Below are positions 13,262-64,000 of a DNA stretch of 64,000 bases, in pieces. Below the pieces are notes generated by a model. That model was not told the DNA's origin. It saw only the letters and a list, made by a program, of their open reading frames with translations, and made no database searches. Within the stretch, counting starts at the first letter, position 1, and the number at the start of each line of letters is the position of its first letter. This stretch comes from an uncultured Acidobacteriota bacterium. Lineage in GTDB: Bacteria > Acidobacteriota > Thermoanaerobaculia > UBA5066 > Gp7-AA6. A program made the translations under genes and the position numbers. The stretch covers positions 677,590 to 741,589 of the forward strand of contig CAWGKP010000008.1 of the NCBI GenBank assembly GCA_963823185.1. Reading direction: 5' to 3'.

Positions 13262-13440
13262 CTTCGCTCGCTCGGGGCCTGCTTCGCACCGTCGGGTCGC
13301 TCGTCCAAAGGGACTCGACGACCCGCCTGGCCCCTTCGCAGCGCTCCGGCTCCCGCGGCGCGCGGCCTCCTCCCTCGGTTTACTTCGGGAGCTGCCGCGC
13401 GCCGCGAACGATCAGGCCATTCCGGCGGATGTCTTGCGCT
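13262..13440 (+). repeat. partial copy (one arm) of the long imperfect-palindrome repeat family seen at 48.15-48.98 kb
   Basis: The stretch caccgtcgggtcgctcgtccaaagggactcgacgacccgcctggccccttcgcagcgctccggctcccgcggcgcgcggcctcctccctcggtttacttcgggag aligns by eye with the reverse complement of 48386-48530. Relative to flanking transcription, its orientation matches the two copies at 48 kb. Confidence 0.6.
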
Positions 13441-24195: not shown

Positions 24196-24201
24196 GGCCG
24201 A

Positions 24202-39436: not shown

Positions 39437-39449
39437 CTCGAGGGAACCC

Positions 39450-42480: not shown

Positions 42481-42999
42481 TCACTGTGCCGCGGCGACCT
42501 TCGCGAAGTCGACGCGGCCGAGGAGTTTCAACGCATCGGCCTGCTCGACGTTGGCTCCCTGCCCGAGCACGAGGCGTCCGGGAGAGACGACGACGGTCAC
42601 GAGGGTCGTCGGCTGCCCCTGGGAGTGATCCGTGATCGCGTACGCGGGGAATCCCCCGACCTTCGTCTGCGCCGTCTCGACGCCGGCCGTCTTGCCCGCC
42701 TCGGCCATGGCCTTGCGGATCGCGCTCTCGAGGTCGGCGCCCTTCCCGTAGTCCTGCACGACGATCCGGAACTGGCGCGCCGCGGAGGGCTCGATCTTCT
42801 GGAAGAAGCGGGACACCTCCGTGTACGTGCCCATCTCGTTCTCGTCGGTGTCGGGCAGCGGATCGCGCGGCGCCGCGTCCCAACCGGGCAGGCTCTTGGG
42901 GATCCCGTCGCGGAGGGAAAGAGGCCAGCTCGCGGAAAGGAGCGCCGGGGCCGCGAGGCAGAGCACCAGAGCGGCCACGCCGGCCTTGCGCGAAACCAT
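42481..42999 (-). CDS. secreted hypothetical protein
   Basis: The in-frame ATG at 42999 gives signal peptide MVSRKAGVAALVLCLAAPALLSA. The track start 43044 would overlap the HU terminator. Confidence 0.45.
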   Translation of the reverse strand: MVSRKAGVAALVLCLAAPALLSASWPLSLRDGIPKSLPGWDAAPRDPLPDTDENEMGTYTEVSRFFQKIEPSAARQFRIVVQDYGKGADLESAIRKAMAEAGKTAGVETAQTKVGGFPAYAITDHSQGQPTTLVTVVVSPGRLVLGQGANVEQADALKLLGRVDFAKVAAAQ

Positions 43000-43094: not shown

Positions 43095-43394
43095 CTACTT
43101 CTTGGGTCCGAGAATCGCGTCCTTCGCCTTCTTGGAGACGCGGAACTTCACGACGCGCTTGGCGGGAATCTTGATCTCTTCGCCCGTCGCGGGGTTGCGG
43201 CCCATGCGGGCCTTCCGGTTCACGAGCACGAGCTTCCCGATGCCCGGGATGGTGAAGCTGTTCTTCGCCTCTTTGTAGGCGAGGGCCGTGAGGTCGTCGA
43301 GAAACTGTGTCGCCTGCTTCTTGGTCGTGCCGGTGGACTTGGCCAGATGATCCGCGGTCTGGGACTTCGAGAGCGCCTTCCCGTCCTTTGCCAT
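43095..43394 (-). CDS. hup: HU family DNA-binding protein
   Basis: 99 aa with FTIPGIGKLVLVNRKARMGRNPATGEEIKIPA, the HU/IHF beta-arm signature. Confidence 0.93.
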   Translation of the reverse strand: MAKDGKALSKSQTADHLAKSTGTTKKQATQFLDDLTALAYKEAKNSFTIPGIGKLVLVNRKARMGRNPATGEEIKIPAKRVVKFRVSKKAKDAILGPKK

Positions 43395-45137: not shown

Positions 45138-45944
45138 TCAGCGCGCCCAGAGCGCGCGATAGCTCTCGAGGAGGCCCGTGCCTGCGAGCGCCGCGAGGAT
45201 CGCGCCCATCGCGAGGAAGACGCCGAACGGAATCTCGGTGCGCAGGCTCCCGCGCTTGCGCGCGATGAGGGCGAGGCCGACGAGGCTGCCGGCGACCGAC
45301 GCGAAGAACGCGGTGAGGAGAACGCCCCAGCCTCCGAGGAAGGCGCCGACCATCGCGAGCATTTTGACGTCGCCGAAGCCCATGGCGTCCACGCGGCGCA
45401 GCCGGCTCCAGGTCCATCCGAGGAGATAGAGGCCTCCCCCGCCGACCGCGGCGCCGACGAACGCCTGCAGCGGCGTCCGCTCGCGCGTGAAGAACGAGAG
45501 GACCAGCCCGATGACGATGCCCGGGAGAGTGATCACGTCGGGCAGGAGCTGGACGTCGGCGTCGATGAACGCGAGCGCGATGCAGGCCGAGGAAAGGAGC
45601 GCGCTCGAGGCAAAGTCGGCGGCGGACGGCGAGCGCAGGAAGAAGACGGCCCACAGAACGCCGTTGGCGAGCTCGACGAGCGGGTAGCGCGGCGAGATCC
45701 GGGCGCGGCACGCGCGGCAACGGCCGCGGAGCACGATCCAGGAGAGGACCGGCACGTTGTCCCACGGCGCGATCGCCGCGCCGCAGGAAGGGCAGCGCGA
45801 GCCCGGGTGGACGACGGACTCCTCGCGCGGAAGCCGGTGGATGAGAACGTTCAGGAAGCTGCCGACGATCAGGCCCGCGACACCCGCGATGACGAGACCG
45901 AAGACGCCGAGCGACCCGAACGGGGGCGACGCGAGAGCGCTCAC
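45138..45944 (-). CDS. pilD: prepilin peptidase (A24 family)
   Basis: CPSCG...CRAC zinc motif, LNVLIHRLP, and catalytic Asp contexts FIDADVQLLPD and GFGDVKMLA. The GTG at 45944 overlaps the stop of the upstream YfhO-like gene (GTGA). Confidence 0.92.
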   Translation of the reverse strand: MSALASPPFGSLGVFGLVIAGVAGLIVGSFLNVLIHRLPREESVVHPGSRCPSCGAAIAPWDNVPVLSWIVLRGRCRACRARISPRYPLVELANGVLWAVFFLRSPSAADFASSALLSSACIALAFIDADVQLLPDVITLPGIVIGLVLSFFTRERTPLQAFVGAAVGGGGLYLLGWTWSRLRRVDAMGFGDVKMLAMVGAFLGGWGVLLTAFFASVAGSLVGLALIARKRGSLRTEIPFGVFLAMGAILAALAGTGLLESYRALWAR

Positions 45945-48136
45945 GCCGCTCTCCCGGGAGTCTCGGCGCGACGCCACCAGACGAGAAGACCGAGGAGCGC
46001 GGCGGCCGAGATCGCCGCTCCGGCGTAAACCGAAATCGGGCGATACCGGAACTCCACGCGATGCGAGCCCGCCGGAACGGCCACGGCGCGGAACGAGCCG
46101 TCGGCGAGGAGGATCTCCGCCGGCGCCCCGTCCACGCGCGCCGTCCAGCCCGGATAGGCGAGATCGGTCAGGACGAGCAGGCCGGCGCGATCGGCGGACA
46201 CGTCGGCCGCGATCCGCTCGGGCTCCTCCGCCGAGATGCCGGCCACGACGTACTTTCCGCCGCCCGCCTCGGGCCGCGGCGACGGCTCCCGGGACAGAAA
46301 GACCCGGCGGCCCTCGTCGCCTTCGGAGCTCGCAGCGCGCGCCCACGCGCGGCCGGCGTCCGCCTCGACGCTGTAAACGGACGTGAAAGACACACGCGGG
46401 CGATACGGATTGAGCGGCGCGCGGAAGAAGTCGCCCACCTTGCGCGAGCCGAGCGTCCCGGGGAGAAACGGAGTCCACAGCACGCGGCCGCTCGCGAGCC
46501 CCGCGGGCCGCGACGGGTCCGCGGCGGCGTCCACGGCGTCGGCGATGCGGCGGACGCCCTCGGTTGGCAGAGCGGCCGCCGAGCGCAGCGTGCGGACGCC
46601 CTCGAGAAGATTCGTGTAGCCGATGAGCGCCTCGCGCTGGCGGCGCGCCATCGCGGCGTCGAAGCTCCAGTCGCGCGAGACCCAGGGCGCGAGCGCGGTC
46701 ATCGACGGCGTCAGCGTGCGGCCGGGAAGCTTCGCGAGGAAGTCGATCGAGTCGGGATGCTTCCGGATCTCCTCCTCGGGCACGAACCGGAAGAGCGGGA
46801 GGTTGCCGAGGGCGTAGCCCGTGACGAGGGCGAGCGCGGCGGCCGCCGCGAAGACGGCGCCGACCGCCGGCCGCGACGCGCGGACGAGCGCCAGAAGCGC
46901 CAGCGCTCCCGCTCCCGCCGCGGCGGCGGCGCGAACGGGCATCGGCCGTCCGGGCCACGCGAGCGCCGCGGCGCCGAGCGCCAGACAGACGATCGCGAGG
47001 ATTCCGCGAACGCGCCGCGCGGGGAGAAATCGCAGCGCGTCGAAACCGAGTCCCGTGAGGACCGCGGCCGCGAAGAGCGTCGCCGCGAGCGCCTTCGCCG
47101 GATAGCGGATCCGGTCGAGCCCGGGCAACGCGCGGATCCATGCGCCGGGCGGACCGGCGGAAGCGAGCAGGATCCCGGCGAGGGCAACCGCCGCGAGGAT
47201 CCCGACGAGGCGGCGCCGTTCCCGATCGGCGAGCGCCGCGGCGCACGCCCCGAGCGCGACCGGGCCGAGATAGACCGACGCGAGAAAGAAGCTTCCGGCC
47301 CAGTCGTCCGGCGCGCCGAGGGCCGCGGCGGCCGCGCCCGCGTGCACCGCGCCGACCTCACGCTCGGCAGCCGGGAACGCGGTGCGGCGCTCCGATCGCA
47401 TCGCGAGCTCTCCCAGAGGAACGAGCACCCACGCCGCGAGCGCGAGGCCCGTCAGGATCGCGCCCGCCGCCCGGCGCCGGGTCTGCGCCGCCGTCGTCTC
47501 CCGCCATCCCGTCGCCGGCTCCTCGCGGCGCGCGAAGGCGAAGACGGCCGAGAGGAGGATCGTGAGCGCCGAGAGCTCGGGGCTGCCCGCCATGGCCTGG
47601 AGGCCCACGAGCGCCGCCATCCCCGCGGCCGCGCCGCGCGTCCGCAGCCCGGAGCGCGCGAGCGCCAGGATCCCCGGCAGGTACGCGAAGGCGCCGAAAT
47701 GGTTCCAGTACGCCGACAGCGACGCCGCGGCCCCCGAGCCCGCGAAAACCAGGGCGCCGGCCAGCGCTCCCGCGTCGGTGACGCCCTCCTCCTTGCAGAA
47801 CCGCCACGTGCCCCACGCGGCGATGCCGAAGTGGAGCAAGAGGAACAGGCCCGCCGCGAGCGCCGGTCCCGGCAGGAGGAAGAGCCAGGTCGGCGGATAG
47901 AAGACCCCCGACTGCGCGTTGGCGAGCCAGGGCTCGCCGCAGCCCGAGAGCGGATTCCACAGCGGGATCCGCCCGGCGCGCAGGCGATCGGCCGTATAGA
48001 GCTTCAGGGGGAAGAAGAAGTCCGCCTGGTCGCGGAAGCTCGGCGCCCGTTTCTGGAGGAGCGCCGGCGCGAGCCAGACCGCCGGAGGAATCAGCGCCGC
48101 GGCGGCGAGGACGCCCGAGGCAAACGCGCGGCGCAC
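45941..48136 (-). CDS. YfhO-like polytopic membrane protein (putative GT-C glycosyltransferase), paralog 1
   Basis: 731 aa with many TM helices. N-terminal DQADFFFPLKLYTADRLRAGRIPLWNPLSGCGEPWLANAQSGVFYP resembles the YfhO N-terminal pattern. A large C-terminal non-membrane domain ends in a terminal TM (AAISAAALLGLLVWW). Confidence 0.65.
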   Translation of the reverse strand: MRRAFASGVLAAAALIPPAVWLAPALLQKRAPSFRDQADFFFPLKLYTADRLRAGRIPLWNPLSGCGEPWLANAQSGVFYPPTWLFLLPGPALAAGLFLLLHFGIAAWGTWRFCKEEGVTDAGALAGALVFAGSGAAASLSAYWNHFGAFAYLPGILALARSGLRTRGAAAGMAALVGLQAMAGSPELSALTILLSAVFAFARREEPATGWRETTAAQTRRRAAGAILTGLALAAWVLVPLGELAMRSERRTAFPAAEREVGAVHAGAAAAALGAPDDWAGSFFLASVYLGPVALGACAAALADRERRRLVGILAAVALAGILLASAGPPGAWIRALPGLDRIRYPAKALAATLFAAAVLTGLGFDALRFLPARRVRGILAIVCLALGAAALAWPGRPMPVRAAAAAGAGALALLALVRASRPAVGAVFAAAAALALVTGYALGNLPLFRFVPEEEIRKHPDSIDFLAKLPGRTLTPSMTALAPWVSRDWSFDAAMARRQREALIGYTNLLEGVRTLRSAAALPTEGVRRIADAVDAAADPSRPAGLASGRVLWTPFLPGTLGSRKVGDFFRAPLNPYRPRVSFTSVYSVEADAGRAWARAASSEGDEGRRVFLSREPSPRPEAGGGKYVVAGISAEEPERIAADVSADRAGLLVLTDLAYPGWTARVDGAPAEILLADGSFRAVAVPAGSHRVEFRYRPISVYAGAAISAAALLGLLVWWRRAETPGRAA

Positions 48137-48151
48137 GCGGTCATTGTAAAT

Positions 48152-48570
48152 CGTCGCCTACGCTTGCTCGGGGATCTGCGCCTGACGGCGCTCGTCCTGA
48201 CGCAACGGCGAAACGTCTTTTCCTCGACGCGCCGTCAGGCGCACCAGCTCGCGGCTCGCCCGAAGGGGCTCGACCGCTCGCCTGATCCCCTCGCTGCGCT
48301 CCGGCTCCCGCAGCGCGAGTCGCTTCGCTCGGTGAACTTCGCGAAGCTTGGTCGCGCTGCGAATGACTGTTCCAGCCGGCTCGTACAGTCGTTCGCGGCG
48401 CGAGGAGTCTCCCGAGGTAATCGAGGGAGGAGCCTCGCGCCGCGGGAGCGGAGGCGAAGCGAGGGATCCAGGCGGACGATCGAGGCCCTTTGGCCGAGTC
48501 GTCCGCCGGTGCGCCTGCGCCATTAGCTGGCCGGGTCTCTGAGCCGCGGTCAGGCGCAGGCGCAGGATCC
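48152..48570 (-). repeat. long imperfect-palindrome repeat, copy A (hairpin 1 + ~290-nt hairpin 2)
   Basis: Hairpin 1 arms are gcgcctgacggcgc (48178-48191) and gcgccgtcaggcgc (48229-48242). A long self-complementary segment spans about 48243-48530 and is centred near 48371-48385. It aligns with copy B from cgcttgctcggggatctgcgcc onward. Confidence 0.8.
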
Positions 48571-48589
48571 TAAGCGAACCGCAGCGACG

Positions 48590-48975
48590 GATCGCCTTCG
48601 CTTGCTCGGGGATCTGCGCCGGCGGCTTCGAGAAGACTCAAGAGTTCCCTCGCGACTGACGCCGCCGGCGCACCAGCTCGCGGCTCGCCCAAAGGTGCTC
48701 GACCGCTCGCCTGATCCCCTCGCAGCGCTCCGGCTCCCGCAACGCGAGTCGGTTTGCTCGGTGAACTTCGCAAACCTTGGTCGCGTTGCGAACGACGGTT
48801 CCAGCCGGACCAGTACAGAAGCTCGCGGCGTGCGAAGTCTCCCGAGCGGAAGCGAGGGAGGAGGCGCACGCCGCGGGAGCCGACGCGCAGCGCAGGGTCC
48901 AGGCCGGTGGTCGAGGTCCTTTGACCGAGCCACCGGCCGGTGCGCCGTCAGGCGCAGGACCCGAGCCAGCGTCGG
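48590..48975 (-). repeat. long imperfect-palindrome repeat, copy B
   Basis: It has the same architecture about 437 nt downstream of copy A. Hairpin 1 arms are gcgccggcggc (48616-48626) and gccgccggcgc (48661-48671), which differ from copy A but remain complementary. The core is caccagctcgcggctcgccc-aaag-gtgctcgaccgctcgcctgatcccctcgcagcgctccggctcccgc. Confidence 0.8.
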
Positions 48976-48981
48976 CGACGG

Positions 48982-49464
<483 letters not shown>

Positions 49465-49499
49465 AAAAAAAGCGGCCCCGACATACGCCGGGGCCGCTT
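49465..49499 (-). terminator. intrinsic terminator between the two pilin genes
   Basis: The minus strand reads aagcggccccg-gcgtatgt-cggggccgctt followed by a T-run that abuts the ATG of the distal pilin. Confidence 0.7.
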
Positions 49500-49544
49500 C
49501 CTCGTCGAGTCCCGAACGCTCTCGACTACGCTGGGTCGAGAGAG

Positions 49545-50042
49545 TTACTGCTGGGTACCCTCAGGCCACTGGATGAACGTTCCGTCGGCGTACACGATGT
49601 CGTCGTTGAAGTCGGTCGTCGTGCCGCAAAACAGGCCGCCCGGGGAACCGTCGCGACCGCCGGACTCGATCCGGTAGTCGTTGTTGTTGTTTCCCGTGGC
49701 ATAGCGGAAGAATCGGCCCCAGCCGTCCTGACGCGGAACCTGGGCGATGTAGGTCGGCTGCAGGTTGGTGAACGACGTCAGAGCGAGGTCGCCGCCGGGG
49801 AAGTTCGCCGTGAAGAGACCCGGGTTGCAGTTCCCGGCCGCCGCGTTCGGGTAGTAGTTGTTGTCCACGGCATACGACTCGATCGCCGTGGCGAGCGCGC
49901 GCATGTCGGACATGGACCGCTTCTGCTTGCCGCGCTGCACCGCGTTGAGCAGGTTGGGGATCGCGATCGCGGCCAAGATGCCGATGATCGCGATGACGAT
50001 CAAGAGCTCGATCAGTGTGAAACCAGCTTCCCGCTTCTTCAT
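49545..50042 (-). CDS. prepilin-type N-terminal cleavage/methylation protein, GspG-like pseudopilin/pilin (promoter-proximal paralog)
   Basis: MKKREAG|FTLIELLIVIAIIGILAAIAIPNLLNAVQRGKQKRSM. GGAGG lies 5 nt upstream of the ATG. The C-terminal CGTTTDFNDDIVY.DGTFIQWPEGTQQ is shared with the paralog. Confidence 0.9.
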   Translation of the reverse strand: MKKREAGFTLIELLIVIAIIGILAAIAIPNLLNAVQRGKQKRSMSDMRALATAIESYAVDNNYYPNAAAGNCNPGLFTANFPGGDLALTSFTNLQPTYIAQVPRQDGWGRFFRYATGNNNNDYRIESGGRDGSPGGLFCGTTTDFNDDIVYADGTFIQWPEGTQQ

Positions 50043-50102
50043 TCTGCCTCCTAGTTGTCCCTCTGTTCCCGTTCCTTCCTATTTCGGTCGTAACCATTGT
50101 TC

Positions 50103-50117
50103 GCAAGGGTGAAGCCA
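50103..50117 (-). promoter_or_regulatory. candidate sigma54 (-24/-12) promoter of the pilin genes
   Basis: The minus strand reads TGGCTTCACCCTTGC. GG and GC have the same spacing as in the TGGCAC-N5-TTGC consensus. It lies about 60 nt upstream of the ATG at 50042. Confidence 0.6.
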
Positions 50118-50185
50118 GTTTGGCATGCGGCTAAGTCGCTTATTTTCTATGATTTGATGTTCGAGGGACGAATCGCAACCGCCGC

Positions 50186-50221
50186 GATTTGTCAAATCCC
50201 GCCGACAGACGGTGACAAATC
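50186..50221. promoter_or_regulatory. perfect 9-bp inverted repeat (candidate enhancer-binding-protein site) upstream of the sigma54-type promoter
   Basis: gatttgtca-N18-tgacaaatc, located 70-105 bp upstream of the -24 element. An AT-rich tract (catcaaatcatagaaaataag on the minus strand) lies between them. Confidence 0.5.
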
Positions 50222-50242
50222 TTGACGCCGGGGCCGAGAGCC

Positions 50243-51637
50243 CTATTTCGGAGGATTCACGGCGTAGTCGGCCACCACGTCGGCATACAGCGCCACGCCG
50301 TCGAGGTAGTCCCTGAGGAAGACCCGCTCGTCCTCGCGATGCCGGCGCTGGGAATCGGTGATGTTCATCGGAATCGGCAGGAACCCGTAGGCCGGGATGC
50401 CGCGATTTCGAAACAGGATCGACGTGTTGTAGCCGCCGAAGGTCGGCACGGGCCCGAAGGGAACGCCCGGCGAATGCGCCTCGATCGCCCGGCGCAGGAG
50501 CTCCGTGAACGGCGTCGGGTATGGGCTCGCGGTCGTTGGCCCGGTCGAGTAAGACCAGGCGGACGTGATCCCGGAGCGGGAGGCGTCCTGGAGGATCGGG
50601 TCGAGAAAGGAGCCGGGATCCACGCCCGGAGGCGTCGAGACGATCACGAAGGCGCGGCGCGTTTCCTTCGCGTCCGGCGGCTCGGGCACGACGGGAGTCC
50701 AGAAGATCCGCGCCTCGAGGAACGCGCCGTACCGGTCCGGCAGCGCGGCGAGCTCCGCCGGGTTGCGGCGCACGCGGTCGAGATGGCGCAGCGGATCGGT
50801 CAGCGGGTTGACGAGATGGTTGGCGAGCAAGTCGAAGCCCAGCACGACGTGCGGATGCGGCGCGACCGGAGTCGACGTGAGCTTCTTCCAGCGCCCGACG
50901 AGATCCTCGAGGGGCTTTCCCGTCGCGGCGCGCAAATCGGCCGACGCGAATCCGGCCTGCAGGGTCTCGAGACCCCAGAAGCGGACGTCGCGCAGGATCA
51001 TCTCCGTGGTGCCGCCCTCGTTCAGCACGGCCGCGACGCCCGCGAACCATTCCGGGCGGTTCGCGAGGAGCCAGCCGGAGCCCCAGCGCTGCCCCGTCTC
51101 CTCGTCGGCCTCGCCCAGGAAGAGGATGTCGGTCTCCGGGACGACGCCCAGGCGTTTCAGGGAGACGAGCGCGAGCGCCTGCGCGACGCCGATCGACTTC
51201 ATGTCGTAGGTGCCGCGCCCGATGAGATACCCGCCCTTGATGACGCCCTCGAACGGCGGCCCCTCCGTCCAGTAGCGCGGGTCGGCTTCGGCGACGTCGA
51301 GATGGTTGAGAAGCAGCAACGCACCGTCGCGCCGCCGGCCCGGCAGGCGCGCGAGCACGTTGCATCGTCCCGGGGCGGGACAGACGACTTCGCTCGAAAT
51401 TCCCTCGCAGTCGAAGAGGTGCTGGAAGAAGCGGGCCGCGGGCTCCTCGGGCTTGCCGACGGACGTGTCGATGCGGACGGCGTCCCGCAGGAGACGCACG
51501 GGTTCGAAGGCCAGCCAATCCGCCGGCGTGCGCGTCGTGTCGGCCTCGATGCGGGGGACCTCTTTCCGCGCGCAGGCGCCCGCCGCGATCACCAGCACCG
51601 CGGCCGCCGCCGTCTGGAACCTCCGGAGATTTTTCAT
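50243..51637 (-). CDS. M20 family metallopeptidase/deacylase, exported (possible lipoprotein)
   Basis: MKNLRRFQTAAAAVLVIAAGAC signal, with LLLNHLDV, GRGTYDMKS, EADEETG and NEGG metal-ligand contexts. The ATG at 51637 overlaps the stop of the upstream YfhO-like gene (ATGA). Confidence 0.85.
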   Translation of the reverse strand: MKNLRRFQTAAAAVLVIAAGACARKEVPRIEADTTRTPADWLAFEPVRLLRDAVRIDTSVGKPEEPAARFFQHLFDCEGISSEVVCPAPGRCNVLARLPGRRRDGALLLLNHLDVAEADPRYWTEGPPFEGVIKGGYLIGRGTYDMKSIGVAQALALVSLKRLGVVPETDILFLGEADEETGQRWGSGWLLANRPEWFAGVAAVLNEGGTTEMILRDVRFWGLETLQAGFASADLRAATGKPLEDLVGRWKKLTSTPVAPHPHVVLGFDLLANHLVNPLTDPLRHLDRVRRNPAELAALPDRYGAFLEARIFWTPVVPEPPDAKETRRAFVIVSTPPGVDPGSFLDPILQDASRSGITSAWSYSTGPTTASPYPTPFTELLRRAIEAHSPGVPFGPVPTFGGYNTSILFRNRGIPAYGFLPIPMNITDSQRRHREDERVFLRDYLDGVALYADVVADYAVNPPK

Positions 51638-56279: not shown

Positions 56280-56357
56280 GAGGTCGGTTTAGGATAGGGC
56301 ATCGAGTCTCCAGCACCAAACCGGGCGGGTTGGAGCGCGGGCCTCGCGATCGCGGCC

Positions 56358-57752
56358 GTGGCCCTCGCGATCGCCGCCCGCCTCGCGCTGCTCGTCGCGC
56401 GTCCGCTCTGGTCGGACGAGCTCTTCACGGTCTGGGTCGCGAGGATGGCGCCCGCGCCGATCGTGTCGGCCCTGCGCAACGACTCCGGTCCGCCCGCCTT
56501 CTACGCGCTCGCAAAACCGTTCGTCGCGCTCGGCGAGATCGCGGGCGACGATCGCGCGGTGCGGGTCCCCTCGTTTCTGGCAGCGCTGGCTCTGCTCTTC
56601 GCCGCGCGCGCGCTGCCGTCGCGCGGCGCGAGGCGCGCGGCCCTCGTCCTGTTCGGCACGTCGGCGCTTCTCGGCCTCTACGCCGCCGAGGGACGCGCCT
56701 ACGCGCTCCTCGCGCTCCTGATCTTCCTCCTCTATCGCGAGGCGCTCGAGGCGGCCGAACGCCCCCGGCAGCTCGCCGCCGTCGGCGCGCTCGGCGCGGC
56801 CGCGCTCTACACGCACTATCTGGCCCTCCCGGCGGTCGCGGTGCTTCTTCTCCTCGCGCTGGCGCGCCGCCGCATCCGGACCGCCGCGGCGCTCGCCGTC
56901 TCGGGCCTGCTCTTCGCGCCGTGGATCCCGATCCTCGCGGCGCAGCCGCCGGGCGCGGTCGCCTGGATGCGCGAACCTCCGGCCGCCTCGGCCGTGGGGT
57001 TTCTTTCGGCCCTCGGAGGCGCGGGCCGCGTGCCGGCGCCGTTCGGCTTCTCGCCGCCGGACGCCGTCTTCGCTCTGGGGATCGCCGCCGCGCTCCTCCT
57101 GACGATGGCCGTCGTGCGCGCGGCGGGCGCCGACGCCGCGATCCGCGACGCCGCGATCTTCGTGGCCGCCGTCCTCGTCCTCTCGATCGCGGCGTCCCTC
57201 GTCATGCCGTTCGCCTTCGCGGGGCGGACCGAGATGGCCGTGCTTCCCGTCTGGCTGTGGGCCGTCGCCCGCGCGTCCGCCGCGAGCCGCCTCGCGCGCG
57301 CGGGAGTCGCGGCGTCGGCCGTGCTCGGGATCCTCACGCTCGGCGCCGCGGCGGTCGGGCCCCATCCTCCCTCGGCGGCGGGACACGCCGCGCGCGTGGT
57401 CGACCGGCTGGCCCGTCCCGCGGACACGCTCTTCGCGGGCCCCGGCCTCTACCTGCCCTTCCGCATCGCCGCAGACCGCGGCCGCCTCGCGCCGCGCCTC
57501 GTCGCATACCCGTCCGCAGTCGCCCGCCATCCGGGCTGGTGGACGCCGGAGGCTCCTTCCGGCGCGGACGCGGCCGCGGTCGCGACGGCGGTCGCGGGAC
57601 CGGGCGCCGTCTGGATGCTCGTGCCGCCGGGATTCGTCACGCCGGAGATCCGCTCAGCGCTCGCCGCGGGCGGTCGCGTGCGGGAGCTCTCGCTGCGGCC
57701 GGAGGCGGTGCTCCTTCACCGCACCGCGGCCGGAGAAGGGGCCCGACCCTAG
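56358..57752 (+). CDS. ArnT/PMT-like (GT39/PMT_2-type) polytopic membrane glycosyltransferase candidate
   Basis: First-loop motif [14 protein letters not shown] (DE motif of lipid-carrier-dependent GT-C enzymes) and about 10 hydrophobic helices. The N-terminus is uncertain because the in-frame upstream sequence extends TM1 without a canonical start. Confidence 0.6.
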
Positions 57753-59164
57753 CTCTCGCCGATTCGTCCGCGCGGCTTGCTCGCGATCGCGAGCAGCGAC
57801 ATGCCGTAGGGCGGCGGGCTCTTCTCCTCGCGCCGCAGCAGCGGCATCGCGAGCTGGAAAGCGAACAGCTGGCCCTTCGGGAGGATCCGCCGGCGCAGGA
57901 TGCGCCCGTTGATCCACCAGCCGACGACGCCCGGCCGGTTCACGAAGCGACAATCCTCGACGCGGAATCCCGCGGCCGCGAGCTTCTCTTCGAGCTCGGC
58001 TTTCTCGTAGCGGCGGAAATGACGCAGGTGCTCGTCGAGCGTCCCGTAGAGCTTCTGCAGCGCCGGCACGAGGACGATCAGGCGCCCGCCCGGCTGGAGC
58101 ACGGCGAACATGTCGGCGAGCGTGCCGCGGTCGTCCTCGATGTGCTCGAGGACGTTGCAGATCACGACCGTGTCGAGCCGCCGGACGGCGAGCTCGGCGC
58201 GCACGCCGTCGCCGAGCGGGAACTCGTAGGACTTCACCTCGACCGCGGCGTCCTCGCGGAAAGCGCCCTTCAGGTACTCGACGGCGATCGGATCCAGATC
58301 GGACGCGATGACGAGCTCGCGGCCCGTCAGGTGGCGCGTCAGGTTCCCGAATCCCGCGCCGATCTCGAGGATCCGGCGGCCGAGCGCGTGGGAGAAGCGG
58401 CCCACGAGCCAGCGGTTGTACGGCTCGAGCTTCGCCATGCGCGCGAGCGTCACGTGCCCGACGTTGCGCGGATCCTCCGCCTCGCGCAGTCCGTGCCGCA
58501 CGATCGTCCAGAGCGCGGAGAAGGCGTCCTTGAGGCCGATCTTCTTGCCTTCCTCGTACGTGCGTCCGTAGTAGGAGATCGGGACCTCGTAGATCCGATA
58601 GCCGCGGCGCGCGACCTTCGCGGTGATCTCCGGCTCGATGCCGAAGCGCGGGCTCTCGATCGTCATGGACTGGACGACCTCGCGCCGGAACATCTTGTAG
58701 CAGGTCTCCATGTCCGTGAGGTTCAGGTTCGTGAACATGTTGGACGCGAGCGTCAGCAGGCGGTTGCCGATGGTGTGCCAGAAGTACAGGACGCGGCGCG
58801 GCCCGCCCCCGAGGAAGCGCGAGCCATACACGACGTCGGCGTGGCCGTCGGCGATCGGGCCGAGCAGCTTCACGTACTCGCGCGGGTCGTACTCGAGGTC
58901 CGCGTCCTGGATGATGACGACGTCGCCGGCGGCGTGCCGGAAGCCGACGGAGACCGCCGCGCCCTTCCCCTGGTTCTGAGGCTGGAGGAAGACGCGCACG
59001 CCGTCGCGGCCGTCCATCTCGCGCAGGATTTCGCGGGTCCCGTCGGTCGAGCCGTCGTCGACGATCAGGATCTCCTTCTCGACGGGAACGGCGGCCACCT
59101 GCCGCACGATCTCGCGGATCGTCTTCGACTCGTTGTAGACCGGCATGACGACGGAGATCTTCAT
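57749..59164 (-). CDS. fusion protein: GT2 polyprenyl-phosphate glycosyltransferase-like domain + class I SAM-dependent methyltransferase
   Basis: The N-terminal half has [18 protein letters not shown], and [10 protein letters not shown] (DxD). The C-terminal half has [12 protein letters not shown] (GxGxG SAM motif), [10 protein letters not shown] and [12 protein letters not shown]. Confidence 0.85.
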
Positions 59165-60876
59165 TTCGTCGGCGGCTCCCGGGGCGGAAGCTCGAAAAGA
59201 TACATCGAGTATCCCACGCGGCCCGCGGGACGGCCGCGCGCCGCGATCTCGCGGAGAAGGTTCTCGAGCGACGCGGCGACGCCCGTCGCGCCATGGTACG
59301 CGTAGTAGAGGGGGCCGACGGCGAGATGGAACGCGGACACGGCGACGAGCGTGCCCCGCACCCGAGGGTCCGCGGAGAAGTCGGGCACGCCGACGCGGTA
59401 CGGGACGTCGTCACCGCCGAAATACACGACCGTCGGGTCCTTCACCCCGCGCCGCCGGAGCTCCACCGCGAGCCGCCGCAGGTCGAGGCCCCAGTCGACG
59501 TTCGAGTCGGTCAGGATCTTCCGTCCGCCTTCGGGACCGCCGGCCAGCGCATTGAAGTACGAGAGCTCGTAGGGGTGGATGTGGAGCGTCTCGCCCGCCG
59601 CCGACAGGGGAAGTGCCGACAGCAGCACGGCCGCGACGGCGGCCGGCCGCCGACCCGCGGCCGCGAGGCGCGCGAGGACGGCCGCGGCGCCGAGCGCGAG
59701 GAACGGATAGGCCGGCAGGAGATGGCGGACACCGATGTTGTAGCTCGATCCGGCCGACGCGACGAAGAGCACCGCGGCCGGAAGAAGCCACAATGCGGCG
59801 TCGCGCCCGAGCCGGAAAGCCGCGGCTCCCCCGAGCGCGAGCGCGGTCGCCGCGAGGAAGGCGAGCGACGATTTCACGAGGAAGGCCACGAGGAAATAGC
59901 CCGGGAAGCCCGTGATCGAGGTCTTGCCCGCGAGGAAATTGATGCCGCCGCCCACCGCGTTCTGCCGCGCGACGTACGCGAGGCCCCCGAGGTAGTGACC
60001 GAGCGGCGGCGAGATCTCGGCCACCCTCTGGATCGCGCGGGCGAGCCCCGGCGCACCGCGCTCTCCCACCGATTCCCAGATGATCTGGCGCTGATCGGCT
60101 CCGTTCATTCGGGTCGTGACGGCCGCGTAGACGGCGAAGACGACGACCAGCGCGCCCGCGGCGACGATTGCGAGCCGGCCGAGGTTGCGCAGCGCGTCGC
60201 GCCCCGGCCTCTCCGACCGCCGCGCCGCGAGGAGCGCCTGCAGAGCGAGGATCGGCAGCAGGTAGACGCCGGAGAATTTCGTCGCGAGGGTCGCGCCGAG
60301 CGCGAGCGCCGCCAGGGCCAGCCGGACCGCGCTCGGCTCCTCCTGCGCGCAGTTCCACGCGACCACCGTCGCCAGGAATCCCAGCGATGCCGCCACGTCC
60401 GTGTGCACGACGCCGGCGTGCGCGACGAAGTTCGGATCGAACGCCACGAGGGCCGCGGCGCAGAGCGCGGGGCCCGGCCCGTACCGCCCGCACGCCGCGG
60501 CAAAGACCAGGACGACGAGCGCGCCCAGCAGCCAACGGAACGGCCGCCGCGCCGCGGCCGCGATCGCGTCGGGAGAGACCCGGTTCTCGAAGAGGAAGGC
60601 ATGGCCGAAGTCGGTGAAGCCGCTTCCCAGAGGAACCTTCGCCGGGGCCGGCGGCAGGTCGAGCGTCGCGAGGGACAGCCCCGCGAGGATCTTCGCGAGC
60701 GGCGGATGCTCGATGTTGACGATCGCCGTGCGGCCGGACACCTCGAAGTACCCCGAGAGGATGTGCACGGGTTCGTCGGCGGACAACGCGTCGAATCGCG
60801 CGTGATCCCAGACGAGCCCGATCGCGGCCAGGGCGAGGACGACGGCGCCGGCCGTCGCGAGCGGGCGGCGGCTCAC
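59161..60876 (-). CDS. ArnT/PMT-like (GT39 family) phospholipid-carrier-dependent glycosyltransferase candidate
   Basis: The GTG at 60876 overlaps the GT2 stop (GTGA). First loop [13 protein letters not shown], many TMs, and C-terminal [30 protein letters not shown], which I recall from GT39-annotated bacterial proteins. Track ORF 59161..61428 is over-extended. Confidence 0.7.
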
Positions 60877-61607
60877 GATTTCGTCGGACGACGCTCGAAG
60901 GTGTGCCGCACCAGCGCGCCGAGCGCGGAAAGGCCGTCCTTGAGGCGGATCTTCTTTCCTTCCGCGCGCGACCGCGCGAAGTAGGAGACCGGCACCTCGA
61001 AGACGCGAAATCCGCCGCGCGCCACCTTCACCGTGAACTCGGCGTCGAATCCGAAGCGCCGCGACTCGAGGTCGAGCGACGGCACGACGCGCCGGTGGAA
61101 GGCCTTGTAGCAGGTCGCCATGTCCGTGAGGTTCAAGTCGGTGAACACGTTCGAGATGAGCGTCAGGATCCGGTTGCCGACCGTGTGCCAGAAGTTCTGG
61201 ACGCGGTTCTCGGCGCTGCCGCGGAAGCGCGAGCCGTAGACGACATCGGCGCGGCCCGACTCGATCGGGCGCAGGATCGCCGCGTAGTCGGCCGGGTCGT
61301 ACTCGAGGTCGGCGTCCTGGATGATCAGGATCTCGCCGCGCGCCTGCTCCATCGCGGTGCGGACCGCGCGGCCCTTCCCGAGGTTCGCCGAATGGAGGAT
61401 CACGCGCACGCCGTCGCGTCCGTTCCATCGCTCGAGGATCTCGCGCGTGCCGTCCGTCGATCCGTCGTCCACGACGAGGATTTCCTTCTCGATCGGAACC
61501 GCGCCGACGAGGCGCAGGATCTCGTCGATCGTCCGCGTCTCGTTGAAGACGGGCATGAGGACGGAGAGCTTCACGCGATGATCAAATGATACCGGACGGG
61601 CTGGCAT
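60873..61607 (-). CDS. GT2 polyprenyl-phosphate glycosyltransferase-like enzyme (DPM1/GtrB/ArnC type), soluble form
   Basis: [18 protein letters not shown] and [10 protein letters not shown]. By eye it is roughly 60% identical to the GT2 half of 57749..59164. The in-frame GTG at 61574 (VKLSVLMPVFNE) is a more typical start than the ATG at 61607. Confidence 0.88.
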   Translation of the reverse strand: MPARPVSFDHRVKLSVLMPVFNETRTIDEILRLVGAVPIEKEILVVDDGSTDGTREILERWNGRDGVRVILHSANLGKGRAVRTAMEQARGEILIIQDADLEYDPADYAAILRPIESGRADVVYGSRFRGSAENRVQNFWHTVGNRILTLISNVFTDLNLTDMATCYKAFHRRVVPSLDLESRRFGFDAEFTVKVARGGFRVFEVPVSYFARSRAEGKKIRLKDGLSALGALVRHTFERRPTKS

Positions 61608-61608
61608 A

Positions 61609-63612
61609 ATGATCGCGATGCCGGCGCGGCGCCTCGTGTTTCTCTTTGGCCTCCTCGCCGCGCTCGCCGTCGGCGTTTTCCTGCGCCTGACGACGCGATC
61701 GCAGCTCGCGGCGACGGGCCGGACGCGCGTGCTGGGCTCCGATGACGCCTATCATCTGCGTCGGGCGCGCTTCGCGGTCGCGCACTTTCCGCGCACGATC
61801 TTCTTCGACCCGCTCATGAACGTGCCCGAGGGCGGCGTCCCGATCTGGCCGCCGCTCTTCGACCTCGCGCTCGCCGCGCCGTCGCGGATCCTCCACGGGC
61901 CGAATGCTCCGGGCGAGGCCGTGGAGGCGGAGGCGTGCTGGGTCCCGGTCGTCCTCGCCGGCGCGGCCATTCTGCTCGCCGGCGTCGTCGGCAAGCGTGT
62001 TTACGGGCCGGCCGGCGGCGCCGCCGCCGCGTTCTTCGTCGCGATCTGTCCGGCGCACATCCTGTGGACGCAGTTCGGGCACACGGACCAGCACGTCGCC
62101 GAATCGGCCACGGGACTCCTCGTCCTCGCGGCCTTCCTCAAGAGCCGCGAGGAGGATCGCGCGCGCAACGACCTCCTCGCCGGCCTCGCGCTGACGCTCG
62201 CGGTGCTCTCCTGGCAGGGCGCGATCTACTGGGCGGCGATCTTCGCGCTGGCGCTGTTTCTCGAGTGCGTCTTCCTGCGGCGCGACGTCCTCCGGCCGAT
62301 CCTGCTCGTCCTCGCGCTGCCGGCCCTCCTCGCCGGCGCCGCGACCGCCCTCTGGCTCGGGCCGATCCGGCCGCCCGTCACCTACGTCTCGTTCGGATTC
62401 TTTCAGCCGCTGTTTCTCGGCGCGCTCGCCGGGGGGACGCTCCTGCTCGCAACCCTCGCGGGGGCCGCGCGTCGCGACCTCGCGGGCCGGGCGCTCGGCG
62501 CCCGCATCGGGCTGCTCGCCGGCGCCGCCGCGGTCCTGCTGCCCTTCGCGGGCGACCTCGTGCGCGGCCTCGCCAACGGCGTGGGATACGTCCTCGGCCA
62601 GACGCAGGAAGCTGCCGGCAAGGGCGGCTACGTCTCCTATCCGGCCGGCTGGCTGAAAGGGATCTTCGAGGCGCGGCCGTTGCTCGCCGACGGATTTTCG
62701 CTCCCGCTCGAGCAGCTCTCGGCCGCGTTCCTCCTCTCGCCGCTCGTCGTCCTTCTCTGGGCCTCGCGGGTCCGGCGCGGTCCGCGGCCGGCGCTCCACC
62801 TCGCGCTCGCGATCTGGGGGGCCGTCACGATCTTCCTCGCCCTGTCGCAGCGGCTGAACGTCTACTATGCCGCGCCGCTCGCGGCGTTCTGCGCGATCGA
62901 AGCGGTCGGCCTCGTCGCGACGCGGCTCGCCGAGGCCGGCGCGCGGCGGGGCGTTCGGGCCGCCTTTGTCGCCGCGACGGCCACGCTGCTCCTTCTGCCG
63001 ATGGCGCCCGGTCTGCGCGGCGAGCTCGCGGCCGTCCGCGCCCCGGGGACGGACCTGTTCGAGACGCTCGACTGGATGAAGCGCGAGCTGCCGCGGACGG
63101 TGGACGTCTACGACCCGCGACTCCTGGACGCACCGCCCGCCGCGCCGGGGCTTTCGCACGCCGCGTCGGTGATCGCGCCCTGGTCGCTCGGCCATCGGAT
63201 TCTCTTCGACGCGGAGCAGCCGGTCGTCGCGAACAATTTCGGCTACGGGTTCGAGGACTCGATCCGGTTCTTCCTGGCCGAGAGCGAGGAGGAGGCCCTC
63301 GCGATCGCGCGGGCGCGGCGCGTGCGGTGGATTCTCGCGACGGACCTCGCGCCACGACTGAACGACTACGCGGGCTACGTCGGCCGCGGGCCCGTCCTCA
63401 CGGCCGGGCCGGGCGGGCTCCAGCCGACGCCCGCGTACTTCCGGACGATGCAGTCGCGGCTCTACGACTTCGACGGCGCGGGCGCGCGGCTGCCGGGCGC
63501 CGAGGTTGCGCCGCTCGCGCACATCCGCCTCGTCCACGCCTCGCGGACCGGCATCGTGCGCGGCGGAAAGTGGCTCGCGCGCTGGAAGGTCTTCGAGATC
63601 CGGCCGGACTAA
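61609..63612 (+). CDS. STT3/AglB-like oligosaccharyltransferase-family membrane protein with degenerate WWDYG motif
   Basis: 667 aa. The first loop has GSDDAYHLRRA...NVPEGGVPIWPPLFD. It has about 13 hydrophobic helices and a C-terminal soluble domain with APWSLGHRILFDAEQPVVANNFGYG, where AglB proteins carry WWDYGHWI....PVVANPFQ (from memory). The alternative start is ATG 61618. Confidence 0.55.
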   Translation: MIAMPARRLVFLFGLLAALAVGVFLRLTTRSQLAATGRTRVLGSDDAYHLRRARFAVAHFPRTIFFDPLMNVPEGGVPIWPPLFDLALAAPSRILHGPNAPGEAVEAEACWVPVVLAGAAILLAGVVGKRVYGPAGGAAAAFFVAICPAHILWTQFGHTDQHVAESATGLLVLAAFLKSREEDRARNDLLAGLALTLAVLSWQGAIYWAAIFALALFLECVFLRRDVLRPILLVLALPALLAGAATALWLGPIRPPVTYVSFGFFQPLFLGALAGGTLLLATLAGAARRDLAGRALGARIGLLAGAAAVLLPFAGDLVRGLANGVGYVLGQTQEAAGKGGYVSYPAGWLKGIFEARPLLADGFSLPLEQLSAAFLLSPLVVLLWASRVRRGPRPALHLALAIWGAVTIFLALSQRLNVYYAAPLAAFCAIEAVGLVATRLAEAGARRGVRAAFVAATATLLLLPMAPGLRGELAAVRAPGTDLFETLDWMKRELPRTVDVYDPRLLDAPPAAPGLSHAASVIAPWSLGHRILFDAEQPVVANNFGYGFEDSIRFFLAESEEEALAIARARRVRWILATDLAPRLNDYAGYVGRGPVLTAGPGGLQPTPAYFRTMQSRLYDFDGAGARLPGAEVAPLAHIRLVHASRTGIVRGGKWLARWKVFEIRPD

Positions 63613-63635
63613 CGGGCGCGGCTCGCAGCAACCTG

Positions 63636-64000
63636 CTAGGGACTCTGCGGCGTCGCGGGCGGCGGACCGTAGAGCCGCCACGCCCCGGCCGCGCGGCGCA
63701 TGTCGGACGGTGTCGCGGCCTCCTGGACGACGCGCTCGAGCTCCTCACGCCCGGGATCGACACCGGAGTACGCCCCGAAGATCGCCGCGCGCCAGAGCCG
63801 CGCGCCGTACGGGACGGTCGGCCGCGCCGCGAGCGGGACGGCGAAGAGAAGCAGCGCCGCGGCGAGGCCGGCGGCGGACGGCGGAGCGAGCGGCGCCGCC
63901 GCGCGGAGGCAGAGACCGCCCGCGGCGGCCACGGCGGCCGCCGGCAAGAGCAGCGATAGCGCGCCCATTCCCGAGAGGAGGTTCGGGGCGAACCAGTCCC
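63636..64000 (-). CDS. membrane protein, C-terminal fragment (gene probably starts beyond window end)
   Basis: The frame of track ORF 63636..63968 stays open upstream to position 64000 (…DWFAPNLLSGMGALSLLLPAAAVAAAGGLCL…) and has hydrophobic segments. No function recognised. Confidence 0.3.
   Translation of the reverse strand, partial: DWFAPNLLSGMGALSLLLPAAAVAAAGGLCLRAAAPLAPPSAAGLAAALLLFAVPLAARPTVPYGARLWRAAIFGAYSGVDPGREELERVVQEAATPSDMRRAAGAWRLYGPPPATPQSP

Follow-up and report, generated by a model that had tools for sequence, protein, structure and literature searches.

Type IV pilin genes embedded in a putative periplasmic glycosylation island conserved across the Thermoanaerobaculia (Acidobacteriota)

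The DNA examined here is a 64-kb stretch (the window, meaning the whole stretch analysed) from an uncultured, soil-type member of the Thermoanaerobaculia (Acidobacteriota), with a GC content of about 71 %. From position 45138 to its end the window carries two type IV prepilin genes and the prepilin peptidase gene pilD among genes for polytopic glycosyltransferases of the GT-C type and for donor synthases of glycosyltransferase family 2 (GT2). Linkage of pilin and pilD genes to GT-C genes is a conserved trait of the class Thermoanaerobaculia. The reading that we favour, at a probability of about 0.5, is that a type IVa pilin locus lies within a periplasmic glycosylation island and is inherited together with it, and that the pilin serves as an acceptor. 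Read in this way, the conserved arrangement suggests elaborately glycosylated pili. A periplasmic glycosylation system, possibly decorating the pilins or other envelope targets, had been proposed in an earlier annotation of the window (the original prediction); the enzyme classes and the class-wide synteny agree with this, while the choice of the pilin as acceptor rests on gene linkage.

Genes were called by third-position GC (GC3) frame analysis, plain lists of open reading frames (ORFs) being full of wrong-frame ORFs at about 71 % GC. Every gene named in the original prediction is backed by the GC3 analysis. One ORF at 50079–51518, which overlaps the M20 gene and has no Pfam match, was set aside as a spurious wrong-frame artefact. 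The gene order between 45138 and 64000 is given below, with strands in brackets and protein lengths in amino acids (aa).

45138–45944 (−), pilD: prepilin peptidase/N-methyltransferase, 268 aa, GTG start (PF06750, 123 bits; PF01478, 68 bits)
45941–48136 (−), YfhO_A: YfhO-family GT-C, 731 aa (PF09586, 31 bits against a cut-off of 28.5)
48982–49464 (−), pilin1: GspG-like type IV prepilin, 160 aa (N_methyl and T2SSG; TIGR01710, 78 bits), leader ending G/FTLIE
49545–50042 (−), pilin2: GspG-like type IV prepilin, 165 aa (T2SSG and N_methyl; TIGR01710, 86 bits), AGGAGG Shine-Dalgarno sequence
50243–51637 (−), M20: exported M20 metallohydrolase, 464 aa (PF01546, 80 bits)
51634–53952 (−), YfhO_B: YfhO-like GT-C, 772 aa (PF09586, 20 bits, below cut-off)
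53949–56279 (−), YfhO_C: paralogue of YfhO_B, 776 aa, 47 % identical to it (PF09586, 16.5 bits, below cut-off)
56358–57752 (+), GTC_D: GT-C-fold membrane protein without a Pfam model, 464 aa (AlphaFold2 and Foldseek)
57749–59164 (−), GT2_MT: GT2 of polyprenyl-phosphate-sugar-synthase type joined to a class I S-adenosylmethionine (SAM) methyltransferase, 471 aa (PF00535, 128 bits)
59161–60876 (−), PMT_E: PMT/ArnT-family (GT39/GT83-like) GT-C, 571 aa (PF02366, 32.6 bits against 22.7)
60873–61607 (−), GT2_s: GT2 of polyprenyl-phosphate-sugar-synthase type, 244 aa (PF00535, 113 bits)
61609–63612 (+), STT3_F: archaeal-type STT3/AglB-fold GT-C without the WWDYG motif, 667 aa (PF02516, 43.8 bits; PF22627, 27.3 bits)
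63636–64000 (−): 3′ end only of a polytopic membrane protein of about 530 aa, a putative glycosyltransferase, cut by the window end

Species representatives of GTDB (one genome per species) were scanned with an alignment of YfhO_B and YfhO_C, 10 kb were kept on each side, and every window protein was located by tblastn. This yielded 74 loci from different species-level genomes, and gene order was judged on those of sufficient length. The STT3-like homologues are named at source as proteins of Thermoanaerobaculia or Acidobacteriota metagenome-assembled genomes, and the same labels are found on all 74 related loci. The order STT3, GT2_s-PMT_E-GT2_MT, GTC_D, YfhO_B/C array-M20, one to three pilins, YfhO_A-pilD is kept, orientation included, in essentially every sufficiently long locus, at protein identities down to 45–60 %. 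The genes are thus not scattered; they are locked to pilins and pilD across the class. Most junctions had been described as overlaps of 4 nucleotides (nt). These overlaps are present in the window at YfhO_A/pilD, YfhO_B/M20, YfhO_C/YfhO_B, PMT_E/GT2_MT, GT2_s/PMT_E and the convergent pair GTC_D/GT2_MT, and they are conserved among relatives, at YfhO_A/pilD in 26 of 33, between the last YfhO_B/C gene and M20 in 48 of 57, at GT2_s/PMT_E in 31 of 39 and at PMT_E/GT2_MT in 32 of 35. In the window and in 33 relatives, the gene that directly follows the last pilin gene is YfhO_A, at a median distance of 97 nt.

YfhO_C and GTC_D are 78 nt apart, and the divergent starts of GT2_s (−) and STT3_F (+) are separated by 1–35 nt (61574–61609). 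These gaps leave almost no room for promoters, which must therefore sit inside neighbouring coding sequences. A scan for sigma-70 promoters found none, and Rfam gave no match above gathering scores over 45–64 kb.

Both prepilins and pilD were recovered as predicted, the former by N_methyl and T2SSG matches and the latter by its A24_N and A24 domains. The two pilins are 75 % identical. In Pseudomonas, Myxococcus and Geobacter, loci for type IVa major pilins are marked by sigma-54 promoters, a sensor kinase gene close by and PilT/PilU. Two regulatory features of the pilin genes were found by reading the sequence:

50103–50117 (−): sigma-54-type −24/−12 element TGGCTTCACCCTTGC, 75 nt upstream of the pilin2 ATG
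49465–49497 (−): intrinsic-terminator-like hairpin 3′ of pilin2, GCGGCCCCG-8 nt-CGGGGCCGC and then T7

The sigma-54 element is the sole match of its type within the window, and the motif occurs 40–90 nt upstream of 51 of the 89 pilin genes of relatives, compared with 0.005 occurrences per 200 nt in the background. The hairpin is perfect and is not among the listed matches of the terminator scan. Hairpin and T7 abut the start codon of pilin1, which has no Shine-Dalgarno sequence, its ATG lying directly against the T-run; pilin2 is probably the expressed major pilin. Among more distant relatives, 26 have a PAS histidine kinase gene that overlaps pilD, with two genes for PilT/PilU ATPases next to it in every locus that extends far enough (about 20 relatives; TIGR01420, 428 and 395 bits against a cut-off of 319). 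The leader is of class III (G/F-x-x-x-E), and the peptidase has PilD domains. Because of the pilT/pilU and histidine kinase neighbours in relatives and the sigma-54 promoters, the pilins are more likely type IVa major pilins, despite their GspG-like globular domain, than the pseudopilins for which the original prediction had allowed. A pseudopilin role, to which GspG model (TIGR01710) scores of 78–86 bits, just under the cut-off of 88.85, would point, is the less likely option. Among 88 distinct pilins from the loci, two Cys residues are shared, the leader G/FTLIE is found in 85 and a C-terminal block, CGTTTxFNDDI..Y.NGTF.QWPEGxQx, is nearly invariant, with CGTTT in 80.

Two genes without Pfam or NCBIfam match adjoin pilD in the window, at 43307/43736–45124 (+; 462–605 aa) and 42481–42999 (−; 172 aa). 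Each product has one hydrophobic segment. The two genes are conserved only in the close clade of the window and fill the position held by the PAS histidine kinase and pilT/pilU elsewhere in the class.

All six polytopic proteins that had been predicted to be GT-C enzymes are placed there by Pfam, profile-profile comparison or AlphaFold2/Foldseek. Each has 10–13 predicted transmembrane segments. The acidic motifs noted earlier in their first loops are likewise real, lying directly after the first transmembrane helix and conserved in homologue alignments of all six: RDQxD in YfhO_A, GRD in YfhO_B/C, DE in GTC_D, SADEPxH in PMT_E and SD[DS]xYH in STT3_F.

YfhO_A, with about 12 transmembrane segments, is always single-copy and always located between the pilin genes and pilD. 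Its PF09586 match is restricted to the C-terminal 70 residues, and a precomputed PF09586 match is present on nearly all listed homologues. Residues R35, D36, Q37 and D39 are invariant among 51 homologues. In the AlphaFold2 model (predicted local distance difference test score, pLDDT, 88.4) the C-terminal part forms a beta-rich domain with a transmembrane helix at the very end; Foldseek matches the model, at probability 1.0, to AftD first (6W98, E = 6.7e-8), followed by ArnT and AglB. Three YfhO-like paralogues had been predicted, and all three stand, YfhO_A by Pfam and the other two by full-length homology to it: hhalign joins the YfhO_B/C and YfhO_A alignments at 99.7 % (E = 1.2e-25, 629 columns, loop-1 RD motif aligned), and pairwise BLASTP of YfhO_A against YfhO_B and YfhO_C gave E-values of 9e-9 and 2e-7. 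R43 and D44 of YfhO_B are invariant in a four-sequence alignment, and D44 is invariant in YfhO_B/C. Among relatives the YfhO_B/C array has one to several tandem copies. The adjacent M20 protein, predicted earlier as an exported deacylase or peptidase, has a signal peptide followed by an invariant Cys22, as well as conserved metal-ligand motifs; it is a probable lipoprotein, and its nearest solved relatives are DapE and aminoacylase. It would be functionally tied to the YfhO_B/C array.

A comparable pairing of pilin and GT-C genes is known from Pseudomonas aeruginosa, where the gene for the GT-C enzyme TfpW follows right after the major pilin gene; TfpW O-glycosylates Ser/Thr of the pilin, and its acidic GT-C motif is required (10.1101/2020.04.19.049825). 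In streptococci, a YfhO-family GT-C and a GT2 synthase O-glycosylate Ser/Thr-rich regions of proteins (10.1101/2024.05.05.592596). The pilin is favoured as acceptor because of these two parallels, because pilins and pilD are fixed inside the island, and because YfhO_A and pilD are translationally coupled. The PilA-TfpW system (P. aeruginosa group IV, with a GtrA-like protein and DprE1/DprE2) is likened to the present locus by arrangement, the GT-C gene being immediately downstream of the pilin gene. Its donor is a monosaccharide carried on polyprenyl phosphate and used on the periplasmic side, and the same logic is proposed here. The pilin-adjacent enzyme of the present locus differs from TfpW in being of the YfhO family, with its C-terminal beta-rich domain and terminal helix and no TPR domain. 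Donors would come from GT2 enzymes of the DPMS/AglJ type and not from a decaprenyl-phospho-arabinose pathway, and five or more further GT-C genes, an M20 hydrolase gene and pilD share the same block.

Two of the GT-C proteins had been called ArnT/PMT-like. For PMT_E this holds by its PF02366 match and by the loop-1 motif SADEPxH, invariant in 44 orthologues; the Pfam family is named for protein O-mannosyltransferases and presumably also covers the ArnT/GT83 family. For GTC_D the likeness holds by structure and not by sequence match. The protein has no Pfam, NCBIfam or PDB-sequence match, and a profile of 31 orthologues retrieved nothing from all PDB sequences, even at E = 10. Its AlphaFold2 model, built from 55 sequences (pLDDT 92.8), has ArnT (5EZM; E = 5.5e-6, TM 0.61) as top Foldseek match, with further matches to ALG12, AftA, ALG9, STT3A, PimE, AftB and PglB, and by these matches the modelled fold is that of a GT-C enzyme. 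Conservation reaches at least 90 % at D20 and E21 and is complete at D42. All 169 homologues of GTC_D are restricted to the class; among the matches listed they are unnamed or called 'hypothetical protein'. In hhalign comparisons among the GT-C families, the sole significant pair was PMT_E and the STT3 family (94 %).

The prediction of two paralogous GT2 enzymes, one of them fused to a methyltransferase, is upheld. GT2_s, for which an alternative start at 61574 (233 aa) may be the true start, is 63 % identical to the N-terminal half of GT2_MT. The methyltransferase part of the latter matches four families (Methyltransf_11, 12, 23 and 25), and in 51 orthologues of GT2_MT the DAD motif of the GT2 domain and the GxGxG SAM motif of the methyltransferase are conserved. 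The best solved relatives of the GT2 enzymes are the Pyrococcus furiosus dolichol-phosphate-mannose (Dol-P-Man) synthase (5MLZ, E = 4e-17), ArnC and GtrB, and their best NCBIfam matches are AglJ (TIGR04182, 129 bits for GT2_MT), PpgS and Dol-P-hexose transferase, all under the equivalog cut-offs. Judged by such matches the enzyme class is clear, and the sugar is not. The broader prediction, that synthase-type GT2 enzymes serve GT-C enzymes of the periplasmic face, agrees with these family and fold matches as far as the classes go. Neither GT2_s nor GT2_MT has a predicted transmembrane or hydrophobic segment, unlike GtrB, ArnC and the P. furiosus enzyme with their C-terminal helices. Soluble polyprenyl-phosphate-sugar synthases do exist, as in the catalytic domain of mycobacterial Ppm1 and in human DPM1, so the missing helices do not argue synthase activity away.

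The three-component logic of GT2 synthase, flippase and GT-C enzyme is well described (PMC5836110, PMC8035078 and PMC11127046). Systems in which a GT2 enzyme is paired with a YfhO-family GT-C include Bacillus subtilis CsbB/YfhO, Listeria GtlA/GtlB/GtcA and the streptococcal GtrB/PgtC2 and PgfS/PgfM1/PgfM2. In these the GT2 makes an undecaprenyl-phosphate-sugar, which the YfhO-type enzyme transfers to teichoic acid or to Ser/Thr-rich protein (PMC5836110 and PMC8035078; 10.1101/2024.05.05.592596). Acceptor genes can share the cluster, as those for Cnm adhesins do in the pgf cluster, and the pilins would be a parallel case here. The present host differs as a high-GC member of the Acidobacteriota, presumably diderm (Arn-like genes are adjacent in relatives), in which no teichoic acids are expected. 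Each locus has three to seven YfhO-like paralogues in place of one or two, PMT-, ArnT-like and STT3-fold GT-C enzymes are added, the cluster has no GtcA/GtrA, and the GT2 enzymes are without the C-terminal transmembrane helices of GtrB/CsbB.

GT2_s-PMT_E-GT2_MT forms a translationally coupled synthase/PMT-family module, which resembles actinobacterial Ppm1/Pmt (for Ppm1, PMC3485146). Streptococcal YfhO-type enzymes, moreover, modify many Ser/Thr-rich proteins (10.1101/2024.05.05.592596). Both points would suit a general protein O-glycosylation system of Ppm1/Pmt or Pgf type, acting on many exported proteins with the pilins as one target or none. We regard this as quite unlikely, since it leaves the fixed position of pilins and pilD unaccounted for; it also overlaps with pilin glycosylation and does not exclude it. 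Ppm1/Pmt and the mycobacterial GT-C series (PimE, MptA-C, Emb, AftA-D) resemble the island in having many GT-C enzymes on one or two polyprenyl-phosphate donors, a synthase that can be soluble and a PMT-family loop-1 Asp-Glu, and the Foldseek matches of YfhO_A and GTC_D include AftD, AftA, AftB and PimE. The phylum and envelope are different, and the island is set apart from that series by tight clustering round pilins, the absence of arabinose-donor genes and the presence of an STT3-fold enzyme.

STT3_F scores over the cut-offs of both PF02516 and PF22627 (AglB_core). In a comparison with sequences of solved structures it matched Archaeoglobus fulgidus AglB-L (3WAJ/5GMY) over residues 15–580 (E = 3e-16) and did not match PglB. 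It keeps the loop-1 Asp (SDDAYH for GNDPWYY), the D-x-H motif (TDQH for NDHH) and the Glu of TIxE (GIFE for TIAE), and these carboxylate motifs are conserved across the 120 homologues listed. At the position of WWDYGH in the A. fulgidus enzyme stands PWSLGH, and PWS[LM]GH is found in 120 of the 120 homologues listed. In PglB and AglB structures the WWD residues of WWDYG hold the +2 Ser/Thr of the N-x-S/T sequon. The STT3/AglB likeness claimed earlier thus stands for the fold and the catalytic carboxylates, and fails for the sequon-binding motif. Because that motif is replaced and the carboxylates are kept, the family is under selection as an enzyme, though probably not as a sequon-reading N-oligosaccharyltransferase. 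A bacterial STT3/AglB fold with intact catalytic residues and no WWDYG would be a natural experiment on acceptor change in oligosaccharyltransferase-fold enzymes.

These features bear on the possibility of archaeal-style N-glycosylation, in which STT3_F would move a lipid-linked glycan en bloc to pilin Asn residues (NGT/NLT sequons), with AglJ/AglD-like GT2 enzymes and with the other GT-C proteins as AglS-like finishing enzymes. The affinity of STT3_F to archaeal AglB, the AglJ model as best NCBIfam match of both GT2 enzymes (about 129 bits) and the methyltransferase, which has an archaeal parallel in AglP, are all in keeping with it. So are the pilin sequons: of 88 pilins, 53 have N-G-[ST] ahead of the conserved C-terminus and 54 have N-L-[ST]. 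It is nevertheless very unlikely, given the uniform replacement of WWDYG, a TIGR04154 (archaeal STT3) score of 225.5 bits under the cut-off of 450, and sequons that are absent from a third of the pilins, pilin2 of the window included. Genes for assembly of a pyrophosphate-linked oligosaccharide (an initiating phosphoglycosyltransferase, Wzx) were not seen in the cluster. Archaeal Agl systems (AglJ/AglD, AglP, AglB, AglS), which modify archaeal pilins and archaellins, share with the island their AglB/AglJ best matches, a methyltransferase, extra GT-C enzymes and the linkage to type IV pilins and prepilin peptidase; the differences lie in the PWSLGH motif, NCBIfam scores that are all under cut-offs and the bacterial host.

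The polytopic protein cut by the window end has a full-length orthologue in the related locus L001 (12139–13737) with 11 predicted transmembrane segments. It has a weak NCBIfam match to the LA_3751/LA_3752 putative (Leptospira) glycosyltransferase family (E = 5.5e-7) and no Pfam match, and hhalign found no significant similarity between the 532-aa protein and any of the families GTC_D, PMT_E, YfhO_A and STT3. In relatives at 65–70 % identity (L001 and L003) this gene, downstream of the STT3-like gene, is followed by one for a YfhO_B-like protein of about 800 aa, next by ArnD-, ArnA-dehydrogenase-, ArnA-formyltransferase-, ArnC- and ArnB-like genes, and then by a Wzt-type ABC transporter. NCBIfam scores are 430 bits for ArnB, 359 for ArnC, 387 for the formyltransferase, 575 for the UDP-4-keto-pentose synthase and 216 for ArnD, of which only the formyltransferase and the UDP-4-keto-pentose synthase exceed the equivalog cut-offs. 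In this region of L001 and L003 no gene could be assigned as an ArnT orthologue, and none of ArnE/F type was seen. Because a full ArnB/C/A/D-like set follows in relatives, a third lipid-linked donor, of aminoarabinose type, would be supplied next door. The ratio of six GT-C enzymes to two synthases, which the original prediction had called unusual, is therefore an artefact of the window edge, as the relatives add the Arn-like donor pathway and two polytopic proteins; many GT-C enzymes on one or two donors are also normal in mycobacteria. The Arn system proper (PmrHFIJKLM) is alike in its ArnB, ArnC, ArnD and split ArnA homologues, and ArnT is the best structural match of GTC_D. It differs in that the Arn-like genes lie outside the window, without a clear ArnT orthologue or ArnE/F and with a much larger GT-C set around them.

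GlmS (glutaminase and SIS domains) and GlmU (nucleotidyltransferase and hexapeptide repeats) are encoded adjacently at 22363–25716 (−), about 20 kb upstream of the island, so genes for UDP-N-acetylglucosamine synthesis are within the window. The earlier statement that the window has neither flippase nor nucleotide-sugar genes thus does not quite hold for the latter, with GlmS/GlmU inside and, in relatives, the Arn-like set past the end; it holds for GtrA and Wzx within the cluster. No Wzy_C Pfam match was found among the proteins scanned.

In the scheme that we infer for the favoured reading, GT2_s and GT2_MT would both use nucleotide sugars at the cytoplasmic face, each transferring a single sugar to polyprenyl phosphate. 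The fused methyltransferase of GT2_MT would probably make the second donor chemically distinct, for example as a methylated hexose, and the Arn-like set past the window would provide a third, amino-pentose donor. A flippase, which could be encoded elsewhere in the genome, would carry the donors across the membrane. At the periplasmic face YfhO_A, the YfhO_B/C array, GTC_D, PMT_E and the WWDYG-less STT3-like enzyme would add sugars singly to acceptors. The pilin would be the likeliest acceptor for at least YfhO_A, with the Thr cluster CGTTT near the pilin C-terminus as candidate site. The remaining GT-C enzymes would either lengthen the pilin glycan or modify further molecules of the envelope. 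A role as periplasmic deacylase or peptidase is proposed for the M20 lipoprotein, whose gene is translationally coupled to that of YfhO_B.

Copy number varies between genomes in the YfhO_B/C array and in an accessory membrane protein of 383 aa, a pattern expected of a surface glycan under diversifying selection. The accessory gene stands between GT2_MT and GTC_D in about 20 loci (L001:4981–6132 (−); L006, L007, L020, L022, L044), sometimes in two copies, and is absent from the window; its product has at least seven transmembrane segments and no Pfam match, and may be a further GT-C-like enzyme.

Several points weigh against the pilin as acceptor. The pilin gene has its own promoter and terminator and is not obligatorily co-transcribed with the enzyme genes. 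In the window's own clade the pilT, pilU and histidine kinase genes are not adjacent, and PilT/PilU are absent from the window. The copy number of YfhO_B/C does not track that of the pilins (r = −0.34, n = 22, in counts slightly inflated by overlapping ORF calls), which also tells against one enzyme per pilin variant. Neither the gene map nor inspection of its gaps revealed a GtrA-, Wzx- or ArnE/F-like flippase gene in the cluster (45138–64000). With the Arn-like genes close by, lipid A is indicated as the acceptor of at least one GT-C enzyme, and the family does not fix the acceptor, as YfhO relatives of Firmicutes also glycosylate teichoic acids (PMC5836110).

Some of these points are shared by the main rival, an envelope glycolipid or polysaccharide island, in which the GT-C enzymes would modify lipid A, lipopolysaccharide core, O-antigen or another glycan, and pilins and pilD would be non-substrate neighbours. 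The donors would be lipid-linked 4-amino-4-deoxyarabinose (Ara4N) and hexoses, in keeping with the Arn-like genes and Wzt-type ABC transporter directly downstream in relatives and with ArnT as the best structural match of GTC_D; the separate transcription unit of the pilin and the teichoic acid substrates of Firmicutes YfhO proteins fit as well. An island of this kind would, however, leave unexplained why pilins and pilD stand amid GT-C genes in every genome examined, at 45–60 % identity, and why YfhO_A and pilD overlap by 4 nt in 26 of 33 genomes. One ArnT-type enzyme suffices for lipid A, and six to ten GT-C-type enzymes are present. We hold this alternative to be unlikely on balance, yet a serious contender to pilin glycosylation.

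Each component class is already known. The original prediction had not recognised the combination as a described system, and none was found in the literature searched, in which no paper on Thermoanaerobaculia glycosyltransferases or on an Acidobacteriota oligosaccharyltransferase was met either. The combination not met there consists of six to ten GT-C-type enzymes of four GT-C lineages, encoded around type IVa pilins and pilD in one block that is syntenic across the class, together with the WWDYG-less AglB-type enzyme, the GT-C family without a model, the synthase-methyltransferase fusion and the coupled M20 lipoprotein. Should the pilins prove to be the acceptor, no other pilin glycosylation system known to us would be as rich in enzymes, and YfhO-type protein glycosylation, described in Firmicutes in the literature searched, would be extended to a phylum of Gram-negative type. 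Whatever the acceptor, GTC_D represents a GT-C family without Pfam or NCBIfam model, and the GT2-methyltransferase fusion is a possible source of a modified lipid-linked donor. Phage susceptibility, adhesion and surface behaviour are influenced by the glycans of pili. The hosts are uncultured Acidobacteriota from soil and sediment, and little is known of their envelope chemistry. A bolder version of the favoured reading can be put forward, as a doubtful conjecture: a complex pilin glycan common to the class, built sugar by sugar in mycobacterial fashion by six to ten GT-C enzymes, with GTC_D among them, a PWSLGH-bearing AglB descendant that would have taken on a new kind of acceptor, and a methylated donor from the synthase-methyltransferase fusion.

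The non-coding gap of 845 nt between pilin1 and YfhO_A (48154–49020) consists of a tandem duplication of a unit of about 430 nt, the copies being 80 % identical. Each unit holds a long imperfect palindrome, and one unit folds to an extended hairpin of −202 kcal/mol (z = −10.4). The unit has no Rfam match above gathering score. Partial copies are found in the window at 13285–13411 and in the related loci L060 (~17958–18235), L054 (~8362–8435 and ~14926–15050), L021 (~6832–7089) and L001 (~16283–16404). With copies at differing genome positions, the unit looks like a dispersed element of the class, similar to miniature inverted-repeat transposable elements (MITE) or repetitive extragenic palindromes (REP).

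The remaining window carries housekeeping genes (SHMT, GlmS, GlmU, GatB, UvrD and others). A gene at 39339–41945 (+) encodes BNR/Sortilin-Vps10 repeats and one S-layer-homology (SLH) domain. It is missing in the relative L077 (about 91–93 % identical), where the alignment covers 38688–39436 and jumps to 42005, which indicates a recent insertion or deletion. Odd low protein identities in L077, considered as a cassette swap, are probably due to assembly frameshifts, since DNA identity stays at 91 % over the whole alignment. A full-length aldehyde dehydrogenase (506 aa; 37047–38567, +) overlaps by 4 nt a gene for a 290-aa protein (38564–39436, +), whose match to the Pfam family of the aldehyde dehydrogenase is confined to the first half of that family and which may be a truncated duplicate. 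The gene at 7933–10836 (−) encodes a 967-aa protein with an unusual mix of response-regulator receiver, Ser/Thr protein kinase and C-terminal TonB_C domains.

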